DNA of 64,000 bases from a virus, in IMG/VR virus record IMGVR_UViG_3300030106_006091, positions 9,839 to 73,838 of that record; one strand, written 5' to 3'. The stretch's first letter is position 1, and each line of letters starts with the position of its first letter. Position numbers and translations under genes: made by a program. Of the stretch, positions 1 through 32,707 are shown piece after piece. The notes below the pieces were generated by a model, which saw only the letters and a program-made list of their open reading frames with translations, had not been told where the DNA came from and did not search any database.

Positions 1-34
1 GAGTCAATTGCTCTAACCACTGAGCTAAGGGCGC
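1..34 (-). tRNA. tRNA, 5' half only (truncated by window edge); probably tRNA-Ile2/Met with CAT anticodon
   Basis: Minus strand reads GCGCCCT-TA-GCTC-AGTGGTTA-GAGC-A-ATTGA-CT-C: acceptor 5' strand, complete D-arm, anticodon stem 5' strand and first anticodon base C. The D-arm resembles bacterial tRNA-Ile2. The rest lies outside the window. Confidence 0.8.
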
Positions 35-35
35 G

Positions 36-64
36 AAAAAGGGCCAGCGACGTTTCGCCGGCCC
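36..64 (-). terminator. Intrinsic-terminator-like hairpin
   Basis: Minus strand GGGCCGGCGA-AACG-TCGCTGGCCC-TTTTT: 10-bp stem (one G-U) plus U tract, directly upstream of the tRNA at 34. Confidence 0.65.
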
Positions 65-108
65 TACCTGAATTGAATGAAACACGTGTGGTTATCGCCT
101 CACACGCG

Positions 109-182
109 TACCTCGAGCGGGACTCGAACCCACAACCTACAGCTTAGAAGGCTGTTGCACTATCCAGTTGTGCTATCGAGGC
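109..182 (-). tRNA. tRNA-Arg (anticodon TCT), CCA not encoded
   Basis: GCCTCGA-TA-GCAC-AACTGGATA-GTGC-A-ACAGC-CT-TCT-AA-GCTGT-AGGTT-GTGGG-TTCGAGT-CCCGC-TCGAGGT-A forms a full cloverleaf. Confidence 0.95.
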
Positions 183-189
183 AATAGAC

Positions 190-444
190 TCACTCAGTGA
201 GCAGCTTGTCAATACTCTCTTCGAGAGCACCAACAGCGCTCATGATGAACAAGCTGAGACTGTTGTCTTGCATTTCCACAGACAACACCTTGTCCAGCTC
301 ATTCTGTAGCCCACTGATGTGATGCTTCAGCTTGTGCTTGAAACGTGTGTTGCCTTGTGTCTCATCCAATAACTCTTGTAATAACATAGACGTCACGAAT
401 AGCTTGACCTCAAGCTGTCGTGTTGTCTTCTTTACTTCTCCCAT
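190..444 (-). CDS. Hypothetical helical protein (84 aa)
   Basis: ORF overlaps the polA stop and is co-oriented; no recognisable motif. Confidence 0.7.
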   Translation of the reverse strand: MGEVKKTTRQLEVKLFVTSMLLQELLDETQGNTRFKHKLKHHISGLQNELDKVLSVEMQDNSLSLFIMSAVGALEESIDKLLTE

Positions 445-2285
445 GTCTGTGAAATGTTTGTGTCTGCTTTCAACAGACCGTTAGGTATTATAATCTTTGC
501 TGCCTTCTCCATGAGCTCAGTCATCTTGATTGACCATGCATCTGAGACCTCCTCCTTACAAATGGTGTCGATCTGATCATGCACGGTCATCACAATCTTG
601 ACAGAGTCAGACCAGCTCTCTTCTATCTCACGGTGGATGTAGATGAGAGCAAGCTTAGTCATGTCAGCTGATGAGCCTTGGATAGGTGTGTTCTTGGATG
701 CACGTTCGATACTACCAAACTCCTGCATCTTCGACCGGTCATCCCATATCTTGGGGAACCATGTGTCGAACCAACGACGGCGTTTGAATGGTGCAAAGGT
801 AGTGATGTAACCGTTGCGTGTACCAAATGTACCAAGCTTTGTTAGAAAGTCTCGGATGTTTGGGAACTCTGTAAAATACTTCTCTATAAGATCCTCCGCT
901 TCTGCTTTAGATATTTGTAGAGTGTCTGCCAGTTTGAACGGTCCCATGCCGTAGGCGAGTCCGAAATTAATTGCCTTAATCTGTGTGCGTAGCTTCTTCT
1001 TAGCATCAGCGTCCGCACTTCTCCACTTATCTTCGAAGACAAGATCGGCGCATACTCCATGAAGATCCAGTCCTTTCTCAAGCGCTTCCAGCCAAACAGG
1101 GTCTTGTGAGCCATAAGCAATGACGTTTAGTTCCTGTGAAGAATAATCGCTGGACACGAAGACCCAGCCCTCGGGTGCGGTGAAACAATTTCTAAAGGTG
1201 TTATCGCTTGGAATTTGCTGCATGTTTGGTTTAGAGGATGAAACTCGTCCTGTATCCAATATCTGAGAGAAATTTGTATGCACCTTTCCGTCACAGTTGA
1301 CGTAATTGAAGAACTTAGTACCGTACGCATTGGCGAGCTTTGTTCGCTCTTTGTATCTGATGTATTCATCTATCAATGGGTGTTTGTATCTGTGTTTGTT
1401 CAGTTTCTTGCCGTTCACATCCTCGAGGTTAGGCACGAGGTGCTGGAACAGCTCTAGTATTTGCAAAGGGGAACTCCACTTGATGTGAGTCTTGCGTACC
1501 TCATCCATCGCAGCAAACATATCTACCTGTACTGGTACGCGGTAGTGTTGTAGCAATGGATGTGCCAACACAATATCATCAAGCTTCAGCTCCTGTTCGT
1601 ATGCCAGCTTGACATTTTGTTCTGCCATAGCTGTCCACTTGTCCTCATCAATGTTGAGACCTTCGTACTCAATCTCACTGAAGACTTTGACTACGGCATT
1701 CTCAAGACGTGTGACTTGTTGTAGTTCAAGCGAATGTATCTTAGCCAGTTGTTTCTCCCGTATGTCAAGCAGATAAACCACATCGTTCGCCCCATACGTA
1801 ATCTGATCGACGGTAAAAGGTTGACCTTTGAGTCCGATGAATTTGTTCCGCGTCTCTTTATCGAGAGTGTGACCGATATATCTTTCGACACACCTGGAAA
1901 GAGAGTATCCATAGTCTTGCTTACCGCAATTGATAACTCTCTCCGCAAGAAACGTGTCGTATATTTCTTCCAACGATATTCCAGCCCATTTTTTGATGAA
2001 CTTGTAATCGAACTTAGCGTTGTGAAGAACCTTGACGATACTGTTCGATTGTAAGACTTCTTTGAGCGGCGTGATGTCGACGTCTCGTGTGTCGATGACG
2101 TACTGTCTGTCTCTGTCCCCGATTTGGAACATGATGAGTTTCTTGCACGTGAAGTCGAAGCCTTCCGTCTCGGTGTCCACCCCCAGAACTGTCTTGCTTT
2201 CACAATAAGCCTGGCATTCTTGTATCGTCGCTGTCTGGATATCATTGAGAGGACTGTTTGTTCCGATGAATCTTACGCTCTGCAT
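432..2285 (-). CDS. polA: DNA polymerase family A with 3'-5' exonuclease, no 5'-3' nuclease domain
   Basis: Exo motifs DTETE, HNAKFD and YGANDV; polymerase motifs TGRVSSSKPNMQQIP, DYSSQEL (A), KAINFGLAYG (B), NTPIQGSSAD and VHDQ (C). Confidence 0.97.
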   Translation of the reverse strand: MQSVRFIGTNSPLNDIQTATIQECQAYCESKTVLGVDTETEGFDFTCKKLIMFQIGDRDRQYVIDTRDVDITPLKEVLQSNSIVKVLHNAKFDYKFIKKWAGISLEEIYDTFLAERVINCGKQDYGYSLSRCVERYIGHTLDKETRNKFIGLKGQPFTVDQITYGANDVVYLLDIREKQLAKIHSLELQQVTRLENAVVKVFSEIEYEGLNIDEDKWTAMAEQNVKLAYEQELKLDDIVLAHPLLQHYRVPVQVDMFAAMDEVRKTHIKWSSPLQILELFQHLVPNLEDVNGKKLNKHRYKHPLIDEYIRYKERTKLANAYGTKFFNYVNCDGKVHTNFSQILDTGRVSSSKPNMQQIPSDNTFRNCFTAPEGWVFVSSDYSSQELNVIAYGSQDPVWLEALEKGLDLHGVCADLVFEDKWRSADADAKKKLRTQIKAINFGLAYGMGPFKLADTLQISKAEAEDLIEKYFTEFPNIRDFLTKLGTFGTRNGYITTFAPFKRRRWFDTWFPKIWDDRSKMQEFGSIERASKNTPIQGSSADMTKLALIYIHREIEESWSDSVKIVMTVHDQIDTICKEEVSDAWSIKMTELMEKAAKIIIPNGLLKADTNISQTWEK

Positions 2286-2448
2286 CTTGCATAAATATTA
2301 GTATTTGTTTTGCGTCACTGAGTGTGTACTGTTTGCCGAGGAAAAATACTGCATTTCGCTCGTTACGTTCTGATATCTCAATCAGTCGTTTGAGGTCGTC
2401 GCTGCGTCCATCTTGAACCATGGCAGCTATCTGGCCCATTTTGCTCAT
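2242..2448 (-). CDS. Hypothetical protein (68 aa)
   Basis: ATG preceded by an A-rich leader; overlaps the polA start. Confidence 0.65.
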   Translation of the reverse strand: MSKMGQIAAMVQDGRSDDLKRLIEISERNERNAVFFLGKQYTLSDAKQILIFMQDAERKIHRNKQSSQ

Positions 2449-2481
2449 CGTAATGTGTGTTTTAAGGTTGAATAATAATCG

Positions 2482-2599
2482 TATCTCACCAAGGAATCGA
2501 ACCTTGTACAGTAGGGGAGAGGTAGTTTCACTTACCTATCTACTGCAGCGTGTAGCTCAACGAAACGATACGAGCATACTACACTTACCTGCGTGAGAT
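2482..2599 (-). ncRNA. tRNA-like RNA 1 (acceptor stem and T-arm, two long non-canonical helices)
   Basis: ATCTCAC/GTGAGAT acceptor stem, T-arm CAAGG-TTCGATT-CCTTG, internal helices GTGTA..GCTCG/TGAGC..TACAC and TGCAGTAG/CTACTGTA; intergenic. Confidence 0.75.
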
Positions 2600-2601
2600 A
2601 T

Positions 2602-2628
2602 AAAGGGGTGAGCTGTTACACTCACCCC
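2602..2628 (-). terminator. Hairpin or terminator after the 195-aa gene
   Basis: Minus strand GGGGTGAG-TGTAACAG-CTCACCCC-TTT, just after the stop at 2636. Confidence 0.6.
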
Positions 2629-2635
2629 CGTTGTG

Positions 2636-3223
2636 TTACGACAGGATTTCGCCTGTAGCAACGTCCACACTCTGAGAAGCGATGATGCCACCACCTGCGG
2701 TTGCAGGTGCATCAGCCTCCAAGAAGGTGTGCTTTGGTTCTCCGAACACCACGTTGGTGTTAGCGAAGATGTACATACCCTTGTGGGTAATGTAGTCACC
2801 ATCCTTTCCACGACGCTTTGCAGCCGTTTCAAGGTTCTCCATCTGCCACTCGGTTGGCTCAACAGTCTCCGTGATTTGCACACGAAGAGCCTTGCCAAGG
2901 GCTTCAGGGTTGATGACATTGAGGGACTTGACTTCACGTCCCATTTCGTTTGTGGTGTAACCACCAGTCAAATCCACACCCAACAACTCAGATGCATCGA
3001 CAGGCTCCGCTGTCATCCATGCCCGACGTGCTCTCGTAGAAGAGAATCGGTCATCAGATGCATTGAATGCAGCCAACGCATTGTTGTTAGACTGTGAAGC
3101 ACCTTCCAGTACTTCTGCGAACTCGAGCTGGACTTTACCGTTGCTTACGCGACGTGATCCAACCAACAAACACTGACCGGACTTGAGGGTGTCCAGTGAA
3201 CCGCTGTTAAGAATGTTACTCAT
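2636..3223 (-). CDS. Hypothetical protein (195 aa); candidate ssDNA-binding or recombination protein
   Basis: Clean ORF with A-rich leader in the replication arm. Beta-rich pattern and a flexible tail ending VDVATGEILS (a D-x-x-TGE-I type tail seen on phage SSB/recombination proteins). Function is inference. Confidence 0.75.
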   Translation of the reverse strand: MSNILNSGSLDTLKSGQCLLVGSRRVSNGKVQLEFAEVLEGASQSNNNALAAFNASDDRFSSTRARRAWMTAEPVDASELLGVDLTGGYTTNEMGREVKSLNVINPEALGKALRVQITETVEPTEWQMENLETAAKRRGKDGDYITHKGMYIFANTNVVFGEPKHTFLEADAPATAGGGIIASQSVDVATGEILS

Positions 3224-3254
3224 GGTTTTATGAGATTAACATGATTATAATGTT

Positions 3255-3283
3255 GGGACTGTTGATGGTCGTCCCGATACCAT
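3255..3283 (-). promoter_or_regulatory. H-type RNA pseudoknot in the 5' leader of the 195-aa gene
   Basis: Minus strand ATGGT-ATC-GGGAC-G-ACCAT-CAACA-GTCCC: two interleaved perfect 5-bp stems, ending 31 nt before the ATG. Confidence 0.55.
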
Positions 3284-3285
3284 TG

Positions 3286-3351
3286 TGAACAGGAGAGGAT
3301 TCGAACCTCCTAACTGATGCGATTCTTGCCAACCAATGGCACTACCTGTTC
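3286..3351 (-). ncRNA. tRNA-like RNA 2 (no anticodon arm)
   Basis: GAACAGG/CCTGTTC acceptor, D-arm GCCA-TTGGT-TGGC, T-arm GGAGG-TTCGAAT-CCTCT. Only 17 largely unpaired nt lie where the anticodon and variable arms should be. Confidence 0.75.
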
Positions 3352-3359
3352 AATAAAAC

Positions 3360-3463
3360 GATAACACAGCCTCACCGGTTTATCTATTGCCATATATGGT
3401 ACTCCGGGTGCAGTCTAACACGTAGGCCATACTGCGGTATCTATTCGCCCTGGCTGTGTTATC
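3360..3463 (-). ncRNA. Putative multi-branched structured RNA
   Basis: Perfect 12-bp closing stem GATAACACAGCC/GGCTGTGTTATC with inner helices GCAGT/ACTGC and CCGG/CCGG. Strand is inferred from context. Confidence 0.55.
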
Positions 3464-3512
3464 TAACTGATTTATATCGACTCCAGCTGAAGCCGCTGCC
3501 ATGGCAGAGTAG

Positions 3513-3622
3513 TAGTGCAGAAGGAATCGAACCTTCGGGATAATGTCTATAAGATGTAGCTATCTCATCTTCGGAGCTCTTATTGGCTCTACAACGACAA
3601 CCCCCCACGCCAGTGTGCACTA
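3513..3622 (-). ncRNA. tRNA-like RNA 3 (topology like the tmRNA tRNA-like domain)
   Basis: TAGTGCA/TGCACTA acceptor, stemless GG-containing D-loop (CACTGGCGT), long helix GGGG..TGTC/GACA..TCCC capped by hairpins (AAGATG/CATCTT, GAGC/GCTC), T-arm GAAGG-TTCGATT-CCTTC. Confidence 0.72.
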
Positions 3623-3776
3623 AGACGCGCAAAGCAAGGGTCGTCACCCAAGCTTCTAACAGTCACCTATTCACTGCTGGAACGGAATGACAACAGCATT
3701 ACTGCTGCGCTACTTATTCTACACGTTATAGATAAGCAAGTTTACCTAGGGGACGTCTGAGTCCTAGGCAGAGTAT

Positions 3777-4154
3777 TTATTCGTCATCAAACGCTGGTTC
3801 AACTGGCCACCAATTAGAGTGAGCAGGAACATTGTTCCGCTGTCTGATGATTTGCCAGCTACCAGTTGGATACTTGATCTTATATCCTGCTGCATCAAAG
3901 CTTGGATGTTTGATGTCCATCCATACTTTGGTCCAACGTTTGCCATTGTTAATGTCCCACACCGTGATAGGTGATGTGAACACATTACATGTAGCCATTG
4001 ACTCGAGCTCAACACTGTCGAGCGTCATGTCAAACCTACCGACATATCCGTTACCGAAGTCGTCTTCGATGATACCGAACATGCCACAGTTGAATGCTTG
4101 CCCCAACATGGTGGTTGAGACAAGCATTAGAAGTATTACTGAAGTTTCTTTCAT
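3777..4154 (-). CDS. Hypothetical exported protein (125 aa)
   Basis: N-terminal signal-peptide-like MKETSVILLMLVSTTMLGQ; start overlaps the upstream stop. Confidence 0.7.
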   Translation of the reverse strand: MKETSVILLMLVSTTMLGQAFNCGMFGIIEDDFGNGYVGRFDMTLDSVELESMATCNVFTSPITVWDINNGKRWTKVWMDIKHPSFDAAGYKIKYPTGSWQIIRQRNNVPAHSNWWPVEPAFDDE

Positions 4155-4366
4155 GATTCTGTTGAATTACAAATGTGAGACCAGCTGGTGTGCTGCTCCA
4201 TGATTTCTGTTAATTGCTTGATGACCTTCTGTCTGTCTGCAACCTCTTCCATTAGACGTTGACGTTCGTTCTGGGCTGCATTGAGGATTGCCCATCTGTC
4301 CTGCTTCCATGTATTCCAACGATGTACGATTGGGTTGAGGACTTTGTTTTTCTTCTTGAGGTCCAT
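4151..4366 (-). CDS. Hypothetical protein (71 aa)
   Basis: Tightly packed in the operon; coiled-coil-like. Confidence 0.65.
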   Translation of the reverse strand: MDLKKKNKVLNPIVHRWNTWKQDRWAILNAAQNERQRLMEEVADRQKVIKQLTEIMEQHTSWSHICNSTES

Positions 4367-4368
4367 GA

Positions 4369-4563
4369 TTATTCTGAAATGATTTCGTCCAAGTATACAT
4401 CAGTGTGCACACCAGACAGTTCTAACTCCAGCTCATTGATGCGAGACTGAAGTTGCATGATGAAAAGGTCTGACTCAGTGGTTGTGTCATGAGCCAAGAC
4501 AAAGTAAAAGGCACCAACAAGTATAATGTTGAATGCCATTGAGGCAAGGAGGATATAAAACAT
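4369..4563 (-). CDS. Small membrane-anchored protein (64 aa)
   Basis: Hydrophobic N-terminal helix plus acidic coiled coil. Confidence 0.65.
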   Translation of the reverse strand: MFYILLASMAFNIILVGAFYFVLAHDTTTESDLFIMQLQSRINELELELSGVHTDVYLDEIISE

Positions 4564-4595
4564 GATGATGGGATTAAAGGGGAGTGGCTATCACC

Positions 4596-4829
4596 TCACC
4601 CCCCATGATTTAATTCATAGTGCTCACGAAGACGTCTCTGGACCTCTTCTTCGACGTTGACCTCGTGCTCTTGGCACAAGTGTACTTGGTGGCGAGCATC
4701 ATCGAGACGCTCTTCTAAATCCTTGACCTTGTTCTTCAGAGAAGCATTCTCCATTGACAAGACAAGGATGGTGTCAGTGAGCTCCCTGGTTGAGAGCTGC
4801 ATTGAGTTAACAAGACAAAACTGTGACAT
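4596..4829 (-). CDS. Hypothetical coiled-coil protein (77 aa)
   Basis: Heptad pattern (LSMENASLKNKVKDLEERLDD); followed by a G/C hairpin plus TTT at 4576-4604. Confidence 0.65.
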   Translation of the reverse strand: MSQFCLVNSMQLSTRELTDTILVLSMENASLKNKVKDLEERLDDARHQVHLCQEHEVNVEEEVQRRLREHYELNHGG

Positions 4830-4951
4830 GTGTCATAAACTTGTATATGCCATGGTTGGCATGGTGAGAAAAAGTGGTAGAAAGTGGTGCATACGACCTG
4901 GTAGTCATACGCACGCACTTTGTACCTGAGATGGTTGGCCGAGCGTAGACC

Positions 4952-5170
4952 TCAAAGGTCTAGCTGCTCGAAGCGACGCTCCAGTCGTGCGAAGAGACCA
5001 TAGTCTCCTTCCTCGACGAGCAAGCGGTCACGCCATTTGGCGTCCGCGGCAAGGACGTCTACGTCCGCGTAGAAAGAGATGGGCTCGTCCCCATCGATTG
5101 CAAGCGCCAGCTTGTCTGGCTTGTCAAGGTCTTGCATAACAATGCAATTCTTCTTAGTGTACTTCGCCAT
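4952..5170 (-). CDS. Hypothetical protein (72 aa), first gene of the leftward arm
   Basis: ATG next to the divergent intergenic region; plausible composition. Confidence 0.65.
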   Translation of the reverse strand: MAKYTKKNCIVMQDLDKPDKLALAIDGDEPISFYADVDVLAADAKWRDRLLVEEGDYGLFARLERRFEQLDL

Positions 5171-5281
5171 GGCGATTTAAGTATTAAAGTGTGAAACAAT
5201 GTACTCCCGGGGGCTGTCGAAGCCCGCCACATAGCTGGGGTCTTTGAATGTGTAGGTTCACGCTCTCAAAAAATTTTTTGT

Positions 5282-5289
5282 TATATTTG
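5282..5289 (+). promoter_or_regulatory. Bacteroidota sigma-A type -7 promoter element
   Basis: TATATTTG matches TAnnTTTG and lies 4 nt before the ATG at 5294, at the strand switch. Confidence 0.7.
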
Positions 5290-5293
5290 CGCC

Positions 5294-5431
5294 ATGGCAA
5301 AGAAGCAAACACCATTCGACATGTACATCAAAAAAAATGTATCAAGACCCGGAGTCCATGGTAAAACTAAATCGTCTAAGCACAAGTCTTCTAAGCTTTA
5401 CAAGAAGGCATATCGCGGCCAAGGCCGTTAG
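5294..5431 (+). CDS. Small basic protein (45 aa, not in the ORF track)
   Basis: MAKKQTPFDMYIKKNVSRPGVHGKTKSSKHKSSKLYKKAYRGQGR*, directly after the promoter box; Lys-rich. Confidence 0.7.
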   Translation: MAKKQTPFDMYIKKNVSRPGVHGKTKSSKHKSSKLYKKAYRGQGR

Positions 5432-7826
5432 TCTAATAGCACTACTACTAGTATCGCTAACTGCTCTATCCCAGAGCTGGATAAACCTTGAACTGCAAGC
5501 AGATCAGTATGGGGGTGAAACAACTTGGGAGATAGTACAGGGCGATAGTGTATTTGCATCAGGGGGACCTTACGGGTCTTTCGAGTACGTACAACAACTC
5601 ATACCCCTACCACCAGGTGAGTACAACCTAGTTGTCAATGATGCATTTGGGGATGGCATCTGTTGTGACTTCGGGGAGGGCTGGTTTGGTATAGAGAACA
5701 CATGTAGCGTATCACAATCAGTGTACGACTTTGCAACTGCGCAAGTAGTAGTGTATTTTGATTTGCTACCATGCCCCCCACCTATAGCTGGATGCAGTGA
5801 TGAGACAGCAAACAACTACAACCCAGATGCATACTTCGATGATACCTGCATCTACGATGTAACATTTAGACTAGACCTCAACGGACCACACCCACCACAG
5901 ATAGTTACCCCAGAAGTAAACTCTAACGTAAACGGGTACTGCGGGTCGTGTTGGGCCATGAGTGATGACGATCAAGATGGGGTGTGGGAGATAACAGCCC
6001 CCATGCCAGAAGGGGAACATCTTTGGAAGTTCTCTGCAGACAATTGGGAGATACAGGAATTGCCAGTAGGCGTTTCTGAGTCTCCCTGTTTTTTGTTCGA
6101 TGAGTTCGGGTATGTCAACAGAACCATAAACGTACAGGGTAACATGACACTCCCACCATTGTGTTGGGAAAGCTGTTTACCATGCGGGGCCGTACCAGGC
6201 TGCACAAATCCAAACGCCAGCAACTGGAGTCCATGGGCAAACTTTGACAACGGGTCATGCACAGGCCTTGGTGCTGACTGTCAACCGTGGGAGACAGAGA
6301 TTACCACTACACTTATCGCAGACAACTACCCCGAAGAAACAAACCTGAACGTATACAATATTACATCTGACGAAGAACTGCTAGATATATCTGTTGGGGA
6401 CATACCACAGCTGGTCATTGGTGTGCCACTTGTGTTCTCTACATGTGCTACAGTTGGGGATGTTGTTGAGGTAGAGATAGCTGACAGCTACGGTGACGGA
6501 CTTGGGGCTTCTCAGTGGGGCGGACAGGACGGAGATCTGTTTGTTGTGGCATGCGGAGATACTCTATGGGACCTGCCTGAAGCTGACTTTGGGTACAGCA
6601 CTTTCTCAGAGTTTACCACACCTACATGTGTCACTGTCGAAGACGTAGTAGGATGTGGAGACCCAGACTACCTAGAGTACAACCCAGATGCGACCATACA
6701 ACTAGATGTGCTGTGTGAAACTCTTGCAGTATACGGTTGCACAGATACACTGTACTTCAACTACGACTCTCTTGCCAATGCAGAAGACGCAATAGATTCC
6801 TGCTTCTATACGCTCACTATTACAGACGGTATCGGAGATGGGTGGTTTGGGAGCTGGCTTGGTGTCTACCAGAACGGGTGGGCATCACCACAATACAAGA
6901 TGGGGCCAAACGATGGGACAGAAGAAGTGTTCGATATATACCTGTCAGCTGAGGAGGAGATAGAGATGTTCTTCTTCACAACCCCGCAGTCACAGAACCA
7001 AGTCAACCAGTGCGGGTTCACGCTTGTTGGCCCGACTGGGGACACACTGATAGATATCTCACAGTGGAGCATTACCCCGTTCCCCAACACATACAGTGTA
7101 ACTCCATACTGCGGCAATACATGTATACCATTTGCATACGGATGCACTGATGAGACTGCACAGAACTATGATGCATACGCAAACACAGAGAATGGTAGCT
7201 GCTACTACAACGCTGGGTGCACACAAGCAGGCTATCTAGAATATTACACCCAAGGGTACGAAGCTGATTACGACGACGGATCATGTGAGACATTGGCTGT
7301 CTTTGGGTGCACAGATGAAGAAGCACTCAACTACGAGCCAGAGGCGAACGTTGACAACAACAGTTGTATAGCCGTAGTCGAGGGCTGCATGGACCCAGAC
7401 GCATATAACTACAACGAAGACGCCAATACTTCTACGCAGTGTTTGTATGATGCAGGATGCATTACAGGACCAGGACAACCCTACTGGGCAAACGACAACT
7501 GCTACACGTGGGTTATAGAAGTTGACCCATACTGCTGTGAGGTGGGGTGGGATGCACCATGTATGGAGCTATATCAATACTGCGGCAATCAAACATCTAG
7601 CGTAGACGTAGCCGTTCAGTCTTTGCTGCACTTCTTCCCTAATCCTACAGACGGGGAGATACGTGTGCAAGCACCCATAGGCACAGTCATTACAATTGTG
7701 GATGCTTCAGGCAGAAAGATAATAGAGACAGAAGACACTAGAATACATCTCCCATCTGCGGGTGTGTATGTAATCATGGCCAACTACAAAGGCCGAATCA
7801 AAAAAGAAACAGTAGTAAGGCAATGA
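5358..7826 (+). CDS. Secreted Cys-repeat protein with type IX secretion (Por) C-terminal sorting domain
   Basis: Signal peptide (AVSLIALLLVSLTALSQ), 8 GCxD..NY..A....C repeats, an E-set/CBM48-like stretch (MSDDDQDGVWEITAPMPEGEHLWKF), and C-terminal FFPNPT...IVDASGRKII...LPSAGVYVI...KETVVRQ typical of a T9SS type A CTD. Start is uncertain (5337 or 5358). Confidence 0.85.
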   Translation: MVKLNRLSTSLLSFTRRHIAAKAVSLIALLLVSLTALSQSWINLELQADQYGGETTWEIVQGDSVFASGGPYGSFEYVQQLIPLPPGEYNLVVNDAFGDGICCDFGEGWFGIENTCSVSQSVYDFATAQVVVYFDLLPCPPPIAGCSDETANNYNPDAYFDDTCIYDVTFRLDLNGPHPPQIVTPEVNSNVNGYCGSCWAMSDDDQDGVWEITAPMPEGEHLWKFSADNWEIQELPVGVSESPCFLFDEFGYVNRTINVQGNMTLPPLCWESCLPCGAVPGCTNPNASNWSPWANFDNGSCTGLGADCQPWETEITTTLIADNYPEETNLNVYNITSDEELLDISVGDIPQLVIGVPLVFSTCATVGDVVEVEIADSYGDGLGASQWGGQDGDLFVVACGDTLWDLPEADFGYSTFSEFTTPTCVTVEDVVGCGDPDYLEYNPDATIQLDVLCETLAVYGCTDTLYFNYDSLANAEDAIDSCFYTLTITDGIGDGWFGSWLGVYQNGWASPQYKMGPNDGTEEVFDIYLSAEEEIEMFFFTTPQSQNQVNQCGFTLVGPTGDTLIDISQWSITPFPNTYSVTPYCGNTCIPFAYGCTDETAQNYDAYANTENGSCYYNAGCTQAGYLEYYTQGYEADYDDGSCETLAVFGCTDEEALNYEPEANVDNNSCIAVVEGCMDPDAYNYNEDANTSTQCLYDAGCITGPGQPYWANDNCYTWVIEVDPYCCEVGWDAPCMELYQYCGNQTSSVDVAVQSLLHFFPNPTDGEIRVQAPIGTVITIVDASGRKIIETEDTRIHLPSAGVYVIMANYKGRIKKETVVRQ

Positions 7827-8866
7827 GATATTTAATCACACTTGTGCTTGTAGCACTTACCTTTAACACAAATGCCCAAGATTTCTATAACAAAGTTCTT
7901 AGAAGAGCGACGTTCTATGCGGCGGCTAATGGAGGCAACTCGGTATCTGATCTTAACACATACTCTCTCTCTTCCGGATCACTTACGACCGGGACTGTTG
8001 AAACGCCCTTTGACTATTCTATTACGCTTGGGGTCCGCAAAATTGCGCGTTTTGGCTATGAGAACAGAGCTAATGTGTTTTACAATGGCACTGAAAACAC
8101 GTACGGGGACGCAGCAACCGTTGGAAAGCGAAACGGATTCGAGTTTCTCGCAGAGGCAGATTGGAGAAGACAGCAAGGAAGAAACTTCCTAGACCAAGAC
8201 TACTTCGTACGTTACGTAGCAGACCACTGGATAGTCAAAGCAGAGTACCTGGCAGACGGGTTTGCTGACATACGATACTTCGAAGGGTCACAAAGACTGC
8301 GTACTCAGATTGGGAAGAAGCTGTCACTCAACGTTGGGATAGTCCAACGCATATCTGAGCCGTACGGGTACGACCCCCTGACAGAGCTCATGCTAGACGA
8401 CAACCAAATACACTATACGTCGTTAGCATTAGAAGAAGGATATACAATAGATGTTAATACAGGTGAGTTTTTTGACCCAAACGGGGAGCTTGTAGCGAAC
8501 GACCCGGCTGTCTGGGAACAGGTGGTGATACCACAGGTGCTCACCGACTACGTAGCCAGAAAACGCTCTGAACTCCCCAGCCAGTGGGTGCACTCAGCAG
8601 TTATAGGCTACGACTTCTACCACTACGACAAAGACTTTTGGCTACACTCATGGGGTAACTTGATGCCCTTTCACCTAGACACAGATGATAACTATTCTTA
8701 CCACCGCTTTGTTAATAGCTCACAGTGGGTAGATTATTCTGTAGGACTTATATTTGGAGTAAAGTTCAACAAAAGCTTTGGGGTATTCCTAGAGGGCAAG
8801 TACAATAGGTACTGGGATAGAGAGTGGCATGACTTCTCCGTTGGGTTGAACTACATACTTATTTAA
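7823..8866 (+). CDS. Putative outer-membrane beta-barrel protein
   Basis: Signal peptide ending NTNAQ, aromatic-rich alternating strands, C-terminal FSVGLNYILI resembling a beta-signal. Confidence 0.7.
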   Translation: MRYLITLVLVALTFNTNAQDFYNKVLRRATFYAAANGGNSVSDLNTYSLSSGSLTTGTVETPFDYSITLGVRKIARFGYENRANVFYNGTENTYGDAATVGKRNGFEFLAEADWRRQQGRNFLDQDYFVRYVADHWIVKAEYLADGFADIRYFEGSQRLRTQIGKKLSLNVGIVQRISEPYGYDPLTELMLDDNQIHYTSLALEEGYTIDVNTGEFFDPNGELVANDPAVWEQVVIPQVLTDYVARKRSELPSQWVHSAVIGYDFYHYDKDFWLHSWGNLMPFHLDTDDNYSYHRFVNSSQWVDYSVGLIFGVKFNKSFGVFLEGKYNRYWDREWHDFSVGLNYILI

Positions 8867-10184: not shown

Positions 10185-10217
10185 TTTGGTTATATAAGAC
10201 CCACTGTTATATATTTG
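10185..10217 (+). promoter_or_regulatory. Bacteroidota-type promoter (-33/-7)
   Basis: TTTG (10185-10188), 21-nt spacer, TATATTTG (10210-10217), upstream of groES. Confidence 0.7.
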
Positions 10218-25756: not shown

Positions 25757-28700
25757 ATGGCTAATTTTATAATATACGGCACAAGGCTAGGAGATAGAAA
25801 GATGCCCACACTTCATGTTGTGGGCACTTATGCTAGTGGGGGGTTTGACCTAATTAACCTTGACCACAGCACCCAAACCGCCCCGCTCATGACCCAACAC
25901 GGCTCGGTGGAGTCAACAGGTCTCACAGGCAGTATAGGTCCTGATTTAATTACAGGTACTACAGACAAAGACAACGCGACAGAGCTGTTCACAGAAGACG
26001 GTAACTTTGAGCTGGTAGGAATCCAGATAACTAAAGTTGGTGTAATAAAAAGAAACGGAGTTCAGTCCAGTATTGTTTCAGGTACCAGTCTTTCGAACTA
26101 CGTAGAGAAGACCGAGCATAGGTATCTGCAAAATGGGCACCTCATGATGAAGGTCTACTTCAATGAGAATAACAGTAACCTTGGAGATGTAGAAGACGCC
26201 TTCTTCGTATCTGGGTGCGCTTTGCTGCAGGCAGGGTCCCAAGCTTTTCTAACAGACGGACCAAAGAAAAGAAAAGTACCGTTTGCTCTTACACTACCAT
26301 TCCGGCCTAAAGGCGAGAACGTAGCACCATCACAAAACCCAACCATAAACCTAAACCAGTTTATATATGGGTCAGGGAACGACAACAACTTCGGCACAGA
26401 GGTTAATGTGCAGAACATGGGTCTGCCCGACACAGATGCAACAGGTTCTATAACTTGGAATACTGTTAGAACTCAAGCCTGGAACTTTGGGCAGTTTGAA
26501 TCAGGCACTCTATCTAACAATGTTGGAAGCTTGCCTTTAGATCCAAGATTCTATCCCCACTTCGGTGATGCAATGATAACTGGGGGCAGTAAAATAGAAA
26601 TTAAAAACAGGAGGATTGACACAGCCAGAAGTCTTGGGGATCTGTATACAGAGGGATCTTCACAAAAGAACCCGACTCCTGATGATGGATTAGACAACTT
26701 CGTATACATTGGTGACGTAAACCTGCACTCAGCAAGTGGAAGTTCCTTTGATCTTAGAGAGCTTCACCAGTTTGGGAGTCAGGCAATAGAAACAGCGGGG
26801 TCATTCAAAGAGACCTGGGGAAGGTTTAGGGGTTCTTGGGTAAACGGACCTGATGAAACTGGATCAGGCGATAGATATACTCGAGACGGGAGTTTCGGTG
26901 GCTTTCCTCAAGTGGGATCTGGAGAGGCGTGTAACGAAGCAAGGATGTTCGTCACCCACAGTGAGGGTATAGGATTCCCACACCTAGGACCAGGAAGCTT
27001 CAACCCTGGGGGTAAAGCCCACTTTTACTCTGATGGTAAATGCAGAAACCCTTACTACCCACAAAGAAACACGGCATTTAGTCACTATATAACCTTCTAC
27101 AAAATAGCTGGGCACGGCACTAGTGTTCCAGAAGGGGCATACCTGCCGGACACTATCACTAACCTGCCTCTAAGCGACGCAGGCCAGTACCCATTTTACG
27201 TAGCAGAAAGCTTCAGAAAAAGTGTGCGCAGCACACAAGGCATTCAGGATGCAGATGCGGAGCAAATTGCAGCTATGGTTCCTGACGGCACAGATTGGTG
27301 GCAATCGCCACAGTCCGCAAGCTCTCCAGTAAGAGCAGTTTTGAGGGGGGCAATGAGCTGGCAGGACTACATATCCAACGCTTTTAAATGCACAGCTAAC
27401 CCGGCAAACGATACCGCACTTCAGGTTATAGGGTCCTTAACATCTGCGGCTTCAGATGGGAGTATGCTCGTTGATAAATATGACATACTATTCTCTGGGT
27501 GCGTACCTACACACAATAACGCCAACGCGGCGTACTCGTCAGCTTTGAATCAAGGTTTAGGAATAACACAAGAAGCTGACCTTCTGGATGCGTTTGGGGT
27601 CACCATAGCGGGAGGCGACGCGGATGCCATAGATGAAAGCACCAAGATATACTTGTACACAGTATTCATGTACTCGGATCACCCTCAGCCTAGGATATAT
27701 CCAGACGTTCAAGATCCTCCAGGTTATGACCTGTCTAACACAGACGTGTTTACTGGGATTAACGCATTCACGCATAGTAACATTACAGGTACTTATGATG
27801 TTGAGCACGTACAGCAGATGGTAAACCCAGACGGGATCGTATCAGCTTCTAATCTAATTGTCAACTGGGCTTCAGATAAGATTACTTTCAACTGTGCAGA
27901 CAGAAACTCATCTGACTCAAATGTTACCACTTTCGTCCAGAACTCAGACATCGCACTGTTTGCAAACAACAATGGCTGTGACATAGATTCGTATACGAGA
28001 TGTGGGTGTCAAAGCGCTGTAGAAGAGTTTGCTCTAGGAGAGCTCATAAACTTTACTTCGTTTGAAGGTGACCAAAATAGATTCGAGACTATCATAACGT
28101 ACCCTAGACCGGTTACTACTAATCAGCTCGACACGATATCAGCACCAAGTGCGTTCCCTTCTATTCTGTACATCAACTCTTACTTTGCTCCGATAGACAC
28201 TAGCACTGCGATAGATTCAACATTTGCTTCTGACTATCTAGAGAACAGCACCCCAACTAACGTTACATTTGACACAGCAGGTGGAGCTACACATACACAT
28301 AGTTTTTCTGACCTAGGAATATCTAATTACGGGGCACTGCCATACATAACTGAGTTTAACGACAACTCAACAGATACAAATACGTTCACGTACTTGTACA
28401 TGCCGGGCAGAGAGCAATTTGAGATAGAAGAGGAGAACGCATACTTTGTGCATGATGATTCTGGGGAGGCTCAAATATTCATGACTGTTCAAGGAGCGGG
28501 GTCAGACGAAAATGGTCCGAGTAATGATATACCTCACAGACAGATGCTTTTGTTCCAAGCACCAAGTCTTGATGTAGCAGGAACAAGCTTTAAGAGAGCA
28601 CACTCGGATTTGTCATTCAGCCAAAACTGGGAAACCCAACCAGTAGAAGCGAGCTATCTCTCATTGGGCACAAACAGTGATTGTGATACAAATGATGACG

Positions 28701-31700
28701 ACACCCCCAAAAGACGGATACGTAAGTTTGTAAATGTCACTGGTCCTAGCCGAGACTCGGGCGCTGAAGATGATGGAGATACAGGAGATGGTGGTCAACA
28801 TGATGATGACAAATTGGGCTGTACAGACGAGACCGCAATCAACTTCGATCCCACGGCAACCACCGACGATGGCAGCTGTGTATTCTGTGATACAGTAGCA
28901 GGAGAGGGCGAGGCAGCATTGCTGCAAAATGTTGACCCATTCTTCTACATACCGTTTGCTTATTATGACTCAATAGTTGCTTCTCTTCAAGGCAGACTCC
29001 AAGGAACTCTTGACAGAACAACCGGCGCCTCTACAGGTGTGAGCTATGGTTCAGCATACGAAGTACCGTTTCCTAGTGGACAAGCAGGATCATTGACCTA
29101 TGACTGGTGGGCAGGAAATGCATTCAATGCGTTCAATACTAGAGGCCCCAATGCAGATCAGACTCTGGGTGCGCTAAATACACCAAGTACGCTACCCACT
29201 GACTACACTGCTTCTCCATTTAACAACACTGCTAATTCTGCGTTTACATACTTCAGAGCCAAGTCTAGCGACACTCTGAGCGCAGCTTCAATAGCGCAGT
29301 ATGGAACACAGTGGCAGTTCGGGGAAGACCTGACTGCTAACACAGCATTCATGGAAGGTGTTGAGAGTTTAATCGAACAGATTGCAACTGAGAATAGCAG
29401 CAACCTCCAAATTAGAATATACAGATATTCTGACTGGGAGACATACGTAGCTACAGGAGACAGCGCCACCATACCTAATGAAGACCAAGGTAACAATGGA
29501 TGGTACCTAGACGATTACGGAAATGGCACATTCCCAATAGGAGCTCAGCCTAACGTGTACGTAGATAACGCTGGTGATTACTCAGCACTTAACCTGAACA
29601 GTGTTACCCCAATAGCTACAAGGAGCAACGAGAATAATGATGCTAGCTGGAACTTTAAATTTGATTTTAGGAACTACGACTCTCTCAGCACAACTGTTCC
29701 TACTGACATAGGATTAGAAGCCGGAGAGCAATACGTGGTGGTGTGGAGGTTGTTCCCAAAGAACAGCTGCACCAACGATAGAAAATTCTACTACTGGGCA
29801 TCTAACTTCTTCGTTAAATACTGCGAGTGTACTAACCCTGACTCTGAGAATGTTGGGGCAGGTAATCCCAACAACGCTACTCCAGCACCTGTTGTCCCGT
29901 ACACTCAATACCCTTGGAGTGGTGAGTCGCTGTTCCCAGGAGCTAACAATCCTCACGATGAAACTAGTTCAGGGTTGGGCATACCTGGAGCCATATGGCC
30001 TGGAAATTACTGCAGCATCAGTAACTCAGAAGTTGGCCTTAACAATACAAGACTGTGTGCGGACAGACAACCCGACGCTTCAACAGACTGTGATGGTTTT
30101 GCTTCTTGGTGTTTGTCAAACATACGCCCACTGTGTCAATATACAGAGGATGGGGTACCGTTTGGTACAGTATCCTTTGAGGTGCTAATAGACGGATTCT
30201 TTACACAGAGTGAACTTGATACATGGTCATTGGAACCCTTCGCCCCACCGTACCAGAACGCGAATACCACTGTAGACTTCTACTGGCAGATAACAGTATC
30301 GTTTAACGGTAGTGTGGATACAATAGTTCCATCTCACGTATATAATGCATCAACTAACACTTGGTCTCTCAATCCTACTGTCAGTGTTACACAACTTGCT
30401 GATCCAGGTGACAGCTCGTTCTACGGGCAAATAGCATCCATCTCATTTAATGATATGGAATGGGATGACTCTGATATCAATGCTATTGGGATGCAACTTC
30501 AGATGAATGTAGAACTGGAGTACCTAGGAATGGTGGATACTGCTGCTGGTCAGGGGAATGGGGGTACGCCTATATATGGCTATCCTGACTATGTTGTAGG
30601 AGCAGACGGTGTAACTTCTGTTGAGGCATGTCCTACCTACAGCATACCGTACACAGCAGACTTTGAAGATTGCGTAGAACTGGTCTCGGGGTGCACTGAT
30701 CCATTGGCAACCAACTTCAATGAACTAGCTTCAGTTGATGATGGATCTTGTGAGTTTACCGACTGCACTGAACTTTACGACGCGTTCCGCAACTCCATAT
30801 TCATTACGAACGTGGTCACCACGAACGACAACCTTGTGTGCGAATCCGTAGATGTAGAAGGTGTGACTGTAAATCAATACACACCGCAGTACCAAGGCAC
30901 AATGACAATAACTGTGCAAGACTTTTCTCTAGGTGTACTGGGAGTAGGAGGCACAGCATCAAATTTCGTAATAGGAGTAGTGCGTATGCAGAGCGGAACA
31001 GTTAACAGCTTGCAACCATTCCTTGACGCATACGACAACAATGCTGCAACAATACAAGCCCTGGAACCAGGGGCAGCATTTACAGTTCCTGGGACCGGCA
31101 ACAACGCATGTTTCGTGATGCCCACAGACGTTACTACTTCCGTAACCTCTGTAGCAGGTCAAGTAGATCCTGTAGGTACGCAAGGCCTACAAACAGTAAC
31201 AACGGTACCAGAGTTTGCAATATTCAACACGCTGGTGGGTGACCAACAGGCAGGAGGATTGCCTGCTGGTCAGTACCTGATATTTGTGATACCTCACATT
31301 AACCTGGACTTGTACGAAGATGACGAATCCGGTATTGGTGAGTGCACTAGTCTGTTCTTGTCCTTCACTGACGAGATGACATTTGCAGGCATTGACAATA
31401 CACTCGTAGATGTAAGTTGTCCTGAACCCTGCAATCAGTTTACTAACCCGGCGGATTGCCCTGACGCAATTCCAGGATGCACAGATCCTACAGCACAGAA
31501 CTACAATGAAAGCGCTACATTCGATGACGGCTCATGCGAGTTCTGTGTAGACTGTGACCCATGTGACCTATACCCACTTGACCCAGAGTGCATAGAATGT
31601 GATAAAGGAGAAGAAACAGATATACTCTCTAGAGGTGCATTGGGTCTGGGAGCAAGGATAAGAGAATGTGACGGTGAAACGGACGAATGCTGTCCTGATC

Positions 31701-32707
31701 CAAATGCATGTAACTATTCATCAAACTGTGAGGCAGGCAACTTTGATACCTGTGAATACGATTGTACAGACGGGGGAGAAGACTGCGATGAGACTCAAGG
31801 AGACTGTGATCCAGAACCACCATGCCCAGACCCAGCTAATCCAGTTTGTGATGGAGAACCTACGGGTAGCTGTGTGGACGACGGTGACTGCCCATGTGTA
31901 GATGACCTATGTAACCAGGACTGCATCTTTGAAGGCAACTGTGAAGAAGATACTGACACTGACGATGACGGTCCTATTGACACGTTCAACACTACCACGG
32001 TTATCTGCGTCCCTGATGTAAGCATACCGATCCCTAACATTACAATTGACGGCGAAGCCCCTACAGATATAGCACATGCAGCAGCGATATGCGATACAAC
32101 TAAGGGGGACAAGATGCTGATGAAAATAAAGACTGGTGTAGAGTATGACGACACTGACCTGCTCAAGCTGTCACTGATTAACTACATATTCACCAGTGCT
32201 GCAAAACAACAGCTGGACTGCATATTTGACTGTAACAACTATGAGACTAAAGCTAAGTCTGGAGGAAAAGCTAGAGGCTTTACAACCAGGCTCAGAGGAG
32301 CGGTCAACTGCAATGCCAGATGGGAGGCAGGCAAGAAACAATTCTTCGCAGGAAGCAGCACGTTCAAAAAGAATACTACCGTCAAGTACATGAGAATACA
32401 AAACGGTAAACTGGTTACCAGCTTCTTTACAGCAAAGAGAGATTGGAGACCTGGAATGGACCTGCCAAATACTACACCTAACCAGGAGCTCAGAACCTGG
32501 GAGCCCTGTGTCAATCTAAAATACCAGGAGGGCACAAACCCAGAAAACTACTGGCAAACCTTCTGGGAGTTCATTACAAGATTCTGTTCCTCATGTGAGG
32601 TAATAACAGGAAATGGAGAGACAGAAGAAACACCAATAGCTATAAAACAAACAAGAAACTTCGGCACATCATTTACAGATGAGTTCGGGAATGAAATAAC
32701 ATTCTAA
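25757..32707 (+). CDS. Giant acidic Cys-rich putative virion surface/appendage protein (2316 aa)
   Basis: Three GCTD..A.N....A..DDGSC repeats and a Cys/Asp/Pro-rich region; located among structural genes. Confidence 0.8.
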   Translation: MANFIIYGTRLGDRKMPTLHVVGTYASGGFDLINLDHSTQTAPLMTQHGSVESTGLTGSIGPDLITGTTDKDNATELFTEDGNFELVGIQITKVGVIKRNGVQSSIVSGTSLSNYVEKTEHRYLQNGHLMMKVYFNENNSNLGDVEDAFFVSGCALLQAGSQAFLTDGPKKRKVPFALTLPFRPKGENVAPSQNPTINLNQFIYGSGNDNNFGTEVNVQNMGLPDTDATGSITWNTVRTQAWNFGQFESGTLSNNVGSLPLDPRFYPHFGDAMITGGSKIEIKNRRIDTARSLGDLYTEGSSQKNPTPDDGLDNFVYIGDVNLHSASGSSFDLRELHQFGSQAIETAGSFKETWGRFRGSWVNGPDETGSGDRYTRDGSFGGFPQVGSGEACNEARMFVTHSEGIGFPHLGPGSFNPGGKAHFYSDGKCRNPYYPQRNTAFSHYITFYKIAGHGTSVPEGAYLPDTITNLPLSDAGQYPFYVAESFRKSVRSTQGIQDADAEQIAAMVPDGTDWWQSPQSASSPVRAVLRGAMSWQDYISNAFKCTANPANDTALQVIGSLTSAASDGSMLVDKYDILFSGCVPTHNNANAAYSSALNQGLGITQEADLLDAFGVTIAGGDADAIDESTKIYLYTVFMYSDHPQPRIYPDVQDPPGYDLSNTDVFTGINAFTHSNITGTYDVEHVQQMVNPDGIVSASNLIVNWASDKITFNCADRNSSDSNVTTFVQNSDIALFANNNGCDIDSYTRCGCQSAVEEFALGELINFTSFEGDQNRFETIITYPRPVTTNQLDTISAPSAFPSILYINSYFAPIDTSTAIDSTFASDYLENSTPTNVTFDTAGGATHTHSFSDLGISNYGALPYITEFNDNSTDTNTFTYLYMPGREQFEIEEENAYFVHDDSGEAQIFMTVQGAGSDENGPSNDIPHRQMLLFQAPSLDVAGTSFKRAHSDLSFSQNWETQPVEASYLSLGTNSDCDTNDDDTPKRRIRKFVNVTGPSRDSGAEDDGDTGDGGQHDDDKLGCTDETAINFDPTATTDDGSCVFCDTVAGEGEAALLQNVDPFFYIPFAYYDSIVASLQGRLQGTLDRTTGASTGVSYGSAYEVPFPSGQAGSLTYDWWAGNAFNAFNTRGPNADQTLGALNTPSTLPTDYTASPFNNTANSAFTYFRAKSSDTLSAASIAQYGTQWQFGEDLTANTAFMEGVESLIEQIATENSSNLQIRIYRYSDWETYVATGDSATIPNEDQGNNGWYLDDYGNGTFPIGAQPNVYVDNAGDYSALNLNSVTPIATRSNENNDASWNFKFDFRNYDSLSTTVPTDIGLEAGEQYVVVWRLFPKNSCTNDRKFYYWASNFFVKYCECTNPDSENVGAGNPNNATPAPVVPYTQYPWSGESLFPGANNPHDETSSGLGIPGAIWPGNYCSISNSEVGLNNTRLCADRQPDASTDCDGFASWCLSNIRPLCQYTEDGVPFGTVSFEVLIDGFFTQSELDTWSLEPFAPPYQNANTTVDFYWQITVSFNGSVDTIVPSHVYNASTNTWSLNPTVSVTQLADPGDSSFYGQIASISFNDMEWDDSDINAIGMQLQMNVELEYLGMVDTAAGQGNGGTPIYGYPDYVVGADGVTSVEACPTYSIPYTADFEDCVELVSGCTDPLATNFNELASVDDGSCEFTDCTELYDAFRNSIFITNVVTTNDNLVCESVDVEGVTVNQYTPQYQGTMTITVQDFSLGVLGVGGTASNFVIGVVRMQSGTVNSLQPFLDAYDNNAATIQALEPGAAFTVPGTGNNACFVMPTDVTTSVTSVAGQVDPVGTQGLQTVTTVPEFAIFNTLVGDQQAGGLPAGQYLIFVIPHINLDLYEDDESGIGECTSLFLSFTDEMTFAGIDNTLVDVSCPEPCNQFTNPADCPDAIPGCTDPTAQNYNESATFDDGSCEFCVDCDPCDLYPLDPECIECDKGEETDILSRGALGLGARIRECDGETDECCPDPNACNYSSNCEAGNFDTCEYDCTDGGEDCDETQGDCDPEPPCPDPANPVCDGEPTGSCVDDGDCPCVDDLCNQDCIFEGNCEEDTDTDDDGPIDTFNTTTVICVPDVSIPIPNITIDGEAPTDIAHAAAICDTTKGDKMLMKIKTGVEYDDTDLLKLSLINYIFTSAAKQQLDCIFDCNNYETKAKSGGKARGFTTRLRGAVNCNARWEAGKKQFFAGSSTFKKNTTVKYMRIQNGKLVTSFFTAKRDWRPGMDLPNTTPNQELRTWEPCVNLKYQEGTNPENYWQTFWEFITRFCSSCEVITGNGETEETPIAIKQTRNFGTSFTDEFGNEITF

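Follow-up and report, generated by a model that had tools for sequence, protein, structure and literature searches.

The question raised by this locus is why three RNA elements, which have the shape of a transfer RNA (tRNA) but cannot decode, are wedged between the genes of a virus. The locus belongs to a genome contig of 73.8 kb (46.7% G+C; IMG/VR record IMGVR_UViG_3300030106_006091), of which bases 9839-73838, i.e., 64,000 nucleotides (nt), were analyzed and are called the window in the following. On its minus strand, the tRNA-like elements TL3, TL2 and TL1, also termed mimics below, alternate with two non-coding RNAs and with a gene for a protein of 195 amino acids (aa), and are followed by the DNA polymerase gene polA and two genuine tRNAs (Table 1). 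The sequence-only reading had proposed that host RNase P and RNase Z release every intervening RNA from one mixed transcript, as in mitochondrial tRNA punctuation. The order, strand and coordinates which it gave for the units proved correct when compared with a motif scan, ARAGORN, Rfam and folds, and the final tRNA, cut by the start of the window, was named as tRNA-Met in a scan of the whole genome. We propose, with roughly even confidence, that host RNase P and RNase Z would cut at the TL borders and thereby punctuate one long transcript, which is the best fit to the sequence evidence set out here.

The whole genome was scanned for a 5-base-pair (bp) T stem with a TTCRANN loop and a directly adjoining 7-bp acceptor stem. 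Exactly five sites were found in 73.8 kb, namely TL3 (3622-3513), TL2 (3351-3287), TL1 (2599-2483), tRNA-Arg and tRNA-Met, all of them on the minus strand and inside 3.7 kb, while the chance expectation is a mean of 0.27 sites with a maximum of 3 (200 dinucleotide-preserving genome shuffles). In all three TL elements the 7-bp acceptor stem is stacked on the 5-bp T stem, and the T loops of TL1, TL2 and TL3 read TTCGATT, TTCGAAT and TTCGATT, respectively. According to the folds, TL1 consists of the acceptor stem, a GG-containing linker, two long hairpins and the T arm; TL2 has a 5-bp D-like arm with GG in its loop between acceptor stem and T arm, and about 16 unpaired nt in place of the anticodon arm; TL3 contains a 3-bp D-like hairpin with a GG loop and one long interrupted arm instead of the anticodon arm. 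An anticodon arm (a stem with a 7-nt loop carrying U33) is absent from TL1, TL2 and TL3 in the folds, and ARAGORN calls none of them by default; at normal thresholds, ARAGORN and Rfam report tRNA-Arg(TCT) alone in the window. The Rfam tRNA model (RF00005) matches TL2 with 29.1 bits and an E-value of 0.0046, with the anticodon arm deleted, and leaves TL1 and TL3 undetected (positions 1-5400, E ≤ 10). Compared with shuffled sequences, the folding energy is low for TL1 (z-score −3.40) and TL2 (z −2.6); that of TL3, taken alone, does not differ from the shuffles in this way (z −1.2). TL1, TL2 and TL3 are tRNA-shaped, yet they are not tRNAs. As in t-elements and modules of the mascRNA type, a non-decoding tRNA shape lies on the same strand as a neighboring RNA unit, right at its end.

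Two other identities were considered for these elements and rejected. For a tRNA containing an intron, the intron mode of ARAGORN adds nothing at the default threshold; with a lowered threshold, TL1 is labeled “tRNA-Leu” amid many obvious false calls. YrlA, a bacterial Y RNA (RF02553), has no match in positions 1-5400 at E ≤ 10. RNAs of that kind have a Ro-binding stem, formed by their ends, on the anticodon side, and a loop closes their acceptor-like stem, whereas the ends of the TL RNAs sit at the acceptor stem.

Table 1. Units of the minus-strand region in 5′ to 3′ order, with window coordinates and the distance that separates each from the unit before it (ORF, open reading frame).
Unit	Coordinates	Strand	Description	Basis	Distance from preceding unit
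Five-hairpin non-coding RNA	3623..3776	-	from the stop codon of a 125-aa ORF (3777) to 1-4 nt before TL3		0-6 nt from the 125-aa ORF stop codon
TL3	3512..3622	-	110 nt + discriminator C; 7-bp acceptor stem, T arm	motif scan	1-4 nt from the five-hairpin RNA
Spacer	3464..3511	-	48 nt, peculiar to this phage	module map and alignment	
Closed RNA	3360..3463	-	104 nt with 12-bp closing stem, then 8-nt U-rich tail (3359-3352)		48 nt from TL3
TL2	3286..3351	-	65-nt mini mimic + discriminator A	Rfam tRNA model and fold	8 nt from the closed RNA
Leader pseudoknot	3255..3283	-	H-type; stem 1 ATGGT/ACCAT, stem 2 GGGAC/GTCCC, A-rich loop 3		2 nt from the TL2 discriminator
195-aa gene (P0001)	2636..3223	-	conserved beside polA		
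G+C-rich hairpin + UUUAU	2604..2629	-	between the 195-aa gene and TL1	terminator-like scan	6 nt from the 195-aa gene stop codon
TL1	2482..2599	-	117 nt + discriminator A	motif scan, fold	4 nt from the hairpin
68-aa ORF ahead of polA			start (ATG)		33 nt from TL1
tRNA-Arg(TCT)	108..182	-		ARAGORN and Rfam, default thresholds	
tRNA-Met region	1..64	-	G+C-rich hairpin 64-41, UUUUUC 40-35, tRNA-Met from 34 off the window edge		

Relatives of the locus were collected by searching with the 195-aa protein and with the TL3 motif, which resulted in 95 loci (numbered L001 and so forth) from Tara and other marine as well as freshwater metagenomes, with proteins 42-99% identical. The synteny is kept in the relatives: a small ORF, an intergenic region, the 195-aa gene, a short ORF, polA and tRNAs. 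In the slot reaching up to 300 nt beyond the 195-aa gene, a tRNA-shaped element was found in 42 of 85 evaluable loci, representing 28 distinct sequences. Each of the 12 stem positions of these 28 shows one to five standard pair types, G-C occupies the two innermost positions of the T stem without exception, and the T loop reads TTC(G/A)AnN throughout; the region between the stems varies in length and sequence (total 71-117 nt). Since the slot elements were picked for pairing, their pairing rate of 98% is no evidence in itself (pairs were counted by position from the ends, as MAFFT misaligned the 5′ acceptor strands of the length-variable mimics). What counts, in these sequence comparisons, is the use of the same slot together with the joint change of both stem strands within lineages. 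For example, within one lineage the acceptor stem ATCTCAC/GTGAGAT becomes ATCTCAG/CTGAGAT at the same position, and a T stem changes from CAAGG/CCTTG to GAGGG/CCCTC on both strands. The mimic stems keep pairing in phages whose adjacent protein is only about 50% identical. Judged from the alignments, only the top half of the tRNA, the acceptor/T stack, is conserved in the mimics.

The individual elements can be followed in the relatives as well. TL1 equals the element of L003 plus a 37-nt hairpin inserted in the D region, the 3′ part of TL2 also occurs in L017, and TL3 is present in eight distinct relatives, with its basal part kept, the tip of its long arm variable in length, and acceptor pair 7 switching from G-C to A-U. 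The indels seen in these regions, of 14 and 37 nt, speak against a protein-coding sequence. With a single exception, the mimics detected in the loci share the strand of the genes. Versions of only 56-65 nt occur, too. A mini family of 56-58 nt, made of acceptor stem, short linker and T arm (L003:3506-3561, L021:364-419, L030, L032, L066, L073), is located in relatives some 0.4-1.1 kb ahead of the 195-aa gene; the window lacks it. When L001:4589-4719 is set against window positions 2482-2635, the mimic and everything downstream differ despite the 95% identical 195-aa gene and the 100% identical hairpin. Because the sequence differs from the mimic onward in the otherwise near-identical L001, the mimic is apparently a mosaic (recombination) boundary between L001 and this phage.

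The placement of the mimics follows that of the genuine tRNAs, which are wedged between ORFs in the same way. tRNA-Arg begins 7 nt past the stop codon of an 84-aa ORF, and a 5-bp hairpin just before it (201-189) contains that stop codon; for tRNA-Met, a G+C-rich hairpin with its U run lies 6 nt ahead of the start, and the next minus-strand ORF about 15 nt beyond the end. All mimics and both tRNAs lie in one minus-strand gene block of about 15 kb, and because of this embedding the genuine tRNAs can hardly be made other than by excision from mRNA-bearing transcripts. The wider distance between TL3 and the closed RNA (Table 1) shrinks to 3-4 nt in L003 and L018. Across the clade, of 74 distinct tRNA and mimic contexts, 43% have a stable hairpin in the preceding 36 nt, compared with 12% of shuffles, and such hairpins mostly end 2-5 nt ahead of the tRNA or mimic. 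At position −1, G occurs in none of 49 distinct mimics and in none of 38 distinct tRNAs, although G makes up 21% of the bases. CCA is encoded in three of the 49 mimics only. The 3′ end of a TL element adjoins the pseudoknot in this phage, in L017 and, with another TL element, in L021.

The top half of a tRNA (the 12-bp acceptor/T stack, the T loop and the elbow) is recognized by bacterial RNase P, RNase Z and the CCA-adding enzyme. The conservation pattern of the mimics appears to match recognition of this top half and nothing more, and cutting by RNase P and RNase Z is favored because the conserved part is what these enzymes and the CCA-adding enzyme recognize. According to this proposal, the co-oriented block of about 15 kb would probably be transcribed as long precursors. 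The anticodon-less mimics would be kept for their top half, and the end-processing enzymes of the host would treat them like the genuine tRNAs of the phage. RNase P would cut between 3623 and 3622, between 3352 and 3351 and between 2600 and 2599; as TL1-TL3 lack an encoded CCA, the cuts of an RNase Z-type activity would follow the discriminators (3512, 3286 and 2482). The products would be the five-hairpin RNA, the 104-nt closed RNA, the mRNA of the 195-aa gene, the downstream polA mRNA and the mimics themselves. The 195-aa mRNA would start at the leader pseudoknot and end in the 3′ hairpin with UUUAU, where termination at the hairpin and an RNase P cut of the read-through would give nearly the same 3′ end. 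Each upstream product would end in a stable helix with a tail of 2-8 nt, which would shield it from 3′ exonucleases, and the abundance of the 195-aa mRNA would be uncoupled from that of its neighbors.

Freshwater relatives add an observation at the border marked by TL2. They carry candidate twister-P1 ribozymes (RF03160; 41-57 bits, E-values of 2e-5 to 4e-10), which stay below the Rfam gathering score of 67.2 and keep the twister core blocks UAA, GC-GC, GUCC-AAGCC, UAAA and GA-GG. A model built from these candidates finds 17 loci, all on the gene strand (L074:2365-2429, L079:1100-1158, L052:2900-2958, L045:1520-1578 and 13 further ones), and none in the window or the marine clade; the Rfam search of positions 1-5400 at E ≤ 10 likewise shows no ribozyme. 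In 13 freshwater loci, 42-52 nt separate the end of the candidate from the start codon (ATG) of the 195-aa gene, and in the other four it lies about 550-580 nt upstream of the gene. All 12 evaluable loci of the 13 with a twister in the leader, related to each other as they are, carry a tRNA mimic immediately behind the 195-aa gene. The leader position of the twister is that of the pseudoknot in marine phages, with TL2 just upstream in the phage studied here. Because a candidate twister occupies the leader which TL2 borders here, a cut at this border seems to be selected, and we regard this as the best indirect sign of it. Rather more tentatively, and with less than even confidence, environmental crAss-like phages may use interchangeable marks (mimics cut by RNase P and RNase Z, genuine tRNAs, and twisters) and thereby excise a pseudoknot-led mRNA, probably for a single-stranded DNA-binding protein (SSB), together with several stable non-coding RNAs, out of a single long transcript. 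If true, this would be, as far as could be found, the first tRNA-punctuation system described in a bacterial virus. The punctuation proposed by the sequence-only reading is partly supported: what is testable by sequence, i.e., the conserved top half, the strand, the gaps, the embedding of the tRNAs and the twister leader, is consistent with it. Its mitochondrial analogy, on the other hand, is loose because most punctuation marks here are not decoding tRNAs.

Several points weigh against cutting at the TL borders. The loci are related to each other and counts across them are not independent events, and the slot is without a mimic in 43 of the 85 relatives. The hairpin ahead of TL1 looks like an intrinsic terminator, and TL1 would perhaps be reached by read-through only. 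Promoters specific to the phage may be present as well. Structures, conservation and placement of the elements can be read from the genomes; co-transcription, cleavage and the effect on stability are inferred from them, and the host with its RNase Z is likewise inferred. Finally, the basal interior of TL3 is conserved beyond the needs of pairing, which suggests a function beyond that of a cutting signal.

This last point leads to the main rival, which is compatible with punctuation: the mimics could be functional, CCA-tailed small RNAs, either using the tRNA as a scaffold for a variable arm, or acting as decoys or sponges for host factors that bind the top half, such as defense nucleases, the CCA-adding enzyme or EF-Tu, and their processing would be mere maturation. 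Over about 40 nt, the basal interior of TL3 is 92-100% conserved, compared with 67-79% identity of the flanking gene; the interior of TL1 has no detectable similarity in the closely related L001; and one short region contains four TL families or more. All three observations would suit such RNAs. However, the mini versions hold almost no “cargo”, the placement of the mimics is tied to gene borders, and the leader bordered by TL2 contains in relatives a candidate ribozyme rather than an RNA product. In addition, the variable arms and non-coding RNAs gave no antisense match elsewhere in the phage genome, and no phage protein acting on tRNAs was identified in this partly annotated genome. We consider this explanation fairly unlikely as an alternative to punctuation; still, mimics released by cutting and tailed with CCA might double as decoys.

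The remaining explanations fit worse than either punctuation or functional small RNAs. The mimics might stay uncut and serve as structural blocks (3′ or 5′ stabilizers, exonuclease barriers, insulators or parts of terminators), and promoter and terminator would be separate for each unit. Hairpins resembling terminators, with short U tracts, do lie ahead of TL1, TL2 and tRNA-Met, and the RNA data, assembled contigs from four seawater metatranscriptome runs of one study compared with window positions 1-6000, cover 2651-3276, i.e., the 195-aa unit, only. These contigs bridge no mimic, and they cannot show ends, absence or level of a transcript. The gaps of 0-8 nt, however, are too small for promoters. 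The Bacteroidota-type motif TAnnTTTG does not occur on the minus strand between 2400 and 4030, which is weak evidence for punctuation, and it is not enriched across the window as a whole; a sigma-70 promoter scan gave fewer matches than shuffles, with a model that is not applicable to a Bacteroidota host. Furthermore, the genuine tRNAs in the same arrangement need excision to function, and bacterial RNase P is known to act on a canonical 12-bp acceptor/T stack whose T loop is intact, so that such a stack would stay uncut only for a special reason. We judge uncut blocks to be unlikely. As a separate observation on promoters, the octamer TATATTTG, which fits the TAnnTTTG −7 motif, occurs three times on the plus strand (5282-5289, 8749-8756 and 10210-10217), its first copy about 50 nt before an 829-aa ORF in a divergent region.

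Alternatively, the mimics could be decaying tRNA genes without present function. A canonical tRNA-Thr occupies the same slot in L091, L092 and L095, and only there. Freshwater mimics reach, independently of the motif scan, 49-58 bits with the Rfam tRNA model, which speaks for punctuation as well, and keep a canonical D arm, with 12-16 nt replacing the 7-nt anticodon loop; the ARAGORN labels (Leu, Ile, Tyr, Lys or undetermined) follow this accidental loop. Because of the tRNA-Thr in three relatives and the canonical D arm in freshwater, descent of the mimics from real tRNA genes is likely, as far as sequences tell. Decay, however, would strike every arm equally, whereas the anticodon region alone is lost here, and the acceptor and T stems pair through many substitutions while the T loop stays invariant, i.e., the stems are under purifying selection. 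We judge present decay to be very unlikely. Extremely improbable, finally, is an aminoacylated or transfer-messenger RNA (tmRNA)-like RNA acting on ribosomes. TL3 is connected in a way reminiscent of the tRNA-like domain of tmRNA, but G3:U70 is found in none of the three elements (pair 3:70 is C-G in TL1, A-U in TL2 and G-C in TL3), a tag reading frame is missing, CCA is not encoded, ARAGORN by default finds no tmRNA genome-wide, and a lowered threshold yields only one below-threshold permuted-tmRNA call (3512-4016).

The units that punctuation would release show conservation of their own. The five-hairpin RNA folds well beyond shuffled sequences (z −3.78) and is 71-80% identical in L007, L083, L095, L064 and L018, the adjacent protein being about 50% identical in the distant ones. 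RNAalifold predicts 40 pairs, 13 of them with compensatory changes, and the RNA has a UAACGUG loop, which is invariant, as well as a GUAA tetraloop and a GGGUGACGACCC hairpin. In distant relatives, the ATG of an ORF follows 22-27 nt after this RNA, where TL3 follows instead in the phage studied here. The closed RNA (z −2.33) is 83-84% identical in L003, L018 and L037, and its variants are a 14-nt hairpin deletion and one change from G-C to G-U in the closing stem; its fold is predicted, the variation being too small for proof. The pattern of the leader pseudoknot was found in 41 of 85 loci but in only one of 85 shuffled leaders, in 18 distinct versions with about ten distinct stem-2 helices, all of them complementary. 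Both of its stems show strong covariation across the marine clade, and we regard the pseudoknot as well supported by sequence comparison. An HDV-like (hepatitis delta virus-like) ribozyme was rejected for it, as the P3 hairpin is missing and Rfam gives no match. A 31-nt A/U-rich stretch separates the pseudoknot from the ATG of the 195-aa gene, the whole leader covering 3224-3283. The hairpin behind the gene is identical or similar in L001-L004, L027 and L028. In Rfam, no match at E ≤ 10 was found over 1-5400 for TL1, TL3, the five-hairpin RNA, the closed RNA or the pseudoknot, and the region gives three unnamed conserved RNA structures for study besides the mimics.

Databases were searched with the 195-aa protein for hints of a function. 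No sequence match was found in Pfam, PHROG or PDB. Its AlphaFold model has a pLDDT of 80.7, but the best PDB match reaches only Z 3.9, weak matches including small beta-barrels, SSBs among them, and neither Foldseek nor VIA-align found a match of the model above noise. The nearest cluster in the ESM Atlas is named SSB (score 0.92), and the GEIFS-like tail at the C terminus is conserved. The demand for an SSB far exceeds that for neighboring products. Pseudoknot and A/U-rich leader resemble the translational operator of T4 gene 32. An SSB is a reasonable lead because of the position beside polA, the conserved GEIFS-like tail, the gene 32-like leader and the demand for SSB, though it is a lead only, in which our trust is evenly divided. 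That demand would explain why the 195-aa mRNA is set apart. If the punctuation proposed here is true, the 195-aa gene, flanked by a mimic on one side and on the other by either a ribozyme or a second mimic, would be a clear model for setting mRNA levels post-transcriptionally.

We read the virus as an uncultured marine crAss-like phage, and its host is probably a member of Bacteroidota. Large terminase, portal and major head protein are encoded (PHROG families). Three plus-strand ORFs exceed 2,000 aa (25757-32707, 43832-50383 and 56037-63998); one of them weakly matches the C-terminal domain of the crAss muzzle protein, and the other two are without a family. The family-A DNA polymerase (PolA) is at most 33% identical to those of cultured phages, the nearest being crAss-like phages and a Leptolyngbya phage. 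A DNA search of cultured phages gave nothing but tRNA-Arg look-alikes, and the 195-aa protein had no match there. In a freshwater relative, a group I intron match lies in or near the polA region (L067:3483-3698; 53.2 bits in Rfam, gathering score 50).

No earlier description of such elements in phages was found in the literature. In plant mitochondria, t-elements are sites where RNase P and RNase Z have been proposed or shown to set the 5′ and 3′ ends of mRNAs (Forner et al., 2007, PMC1920247). Non-decoding acceptor/T-arm structures lie beside mRNAs in both cases. The t-elements, however, belong to organelles, whereas here a bacterial DNA phage is concerned and cleavage is proposed only; unlike t-elements, the phage mimics fall into several families, border non-coding RNAs as well and, in relatives, occur together with candidate ribozymes. 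In animal mitochondrial DNA, tRNAs punctuate the genes of a polycistronic transcript, and RNase P and RNase Z free the flanking RNAs (PMC3790967). In the phage, tRNA-shaped units sit between other genes, too, but the mitochondrial marks are functional tRNAs, whereas three of the five marks here cannot decode, and hairpins precede the marks. In mascRNA of MALAT1 and MEN-beta and in the tRNA-miRNA-encoded RNAs (TMERs) of murine gammaherpesvirus 68 (MHV68), RNase P or RNase Z cuts a tRNA-like module that has no working anticodon, which sets the end of the neighboring RNA. These modules, transcripts of RNA polymerase II or III, receive CCA and are not aminoacylated. They belong to eukaryotic nuclei or a herpesvirus and have no sequence relationship to the phage mimics.

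Among phages, theta (HDV-like) ribozymes have been described beside tRNAs of gut phages (PMC10879173) and hammerheads in phage genomes (PMC3088659). These are RNA-cleaving devices at tRNA or gene borders in phages of Bacteroidota and other hosts, as the mimics are proposed to be here; the ribozymes cut themselves, whereas the mimics would borrow host enzymes. The stable RNAs species 1 and 2 of T4 have tRNA-like ends matured by RNase P and are part of a tRNA gene cluster, and RNase III sites between genes of T7 cut polycistronic mRNAs and leave protective 3′ hairpins. The T4 RNAs thus do not lie between mRNAs, and in T7 the sites are RNase III hairpins instead of tRNA shapes. Should the mimics be cut, Bacteroidota phages would have arrived at the organellar solution for obtaining many RNAs from one transcript, with tRNAs stripped to the minimum needed by RNase P and RNase Z. 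Engineered tRNA scaffolds and tRNA-spaced multi-RNA arrays would then have a natural counterpart, and the odd “tRNAs” with impossible anticodon loops which tRNA finders report on phage contigs would be explained. The principle is known from t-elements, from mitochondrial punctuation and from the mascRNA and MHV68 modules.

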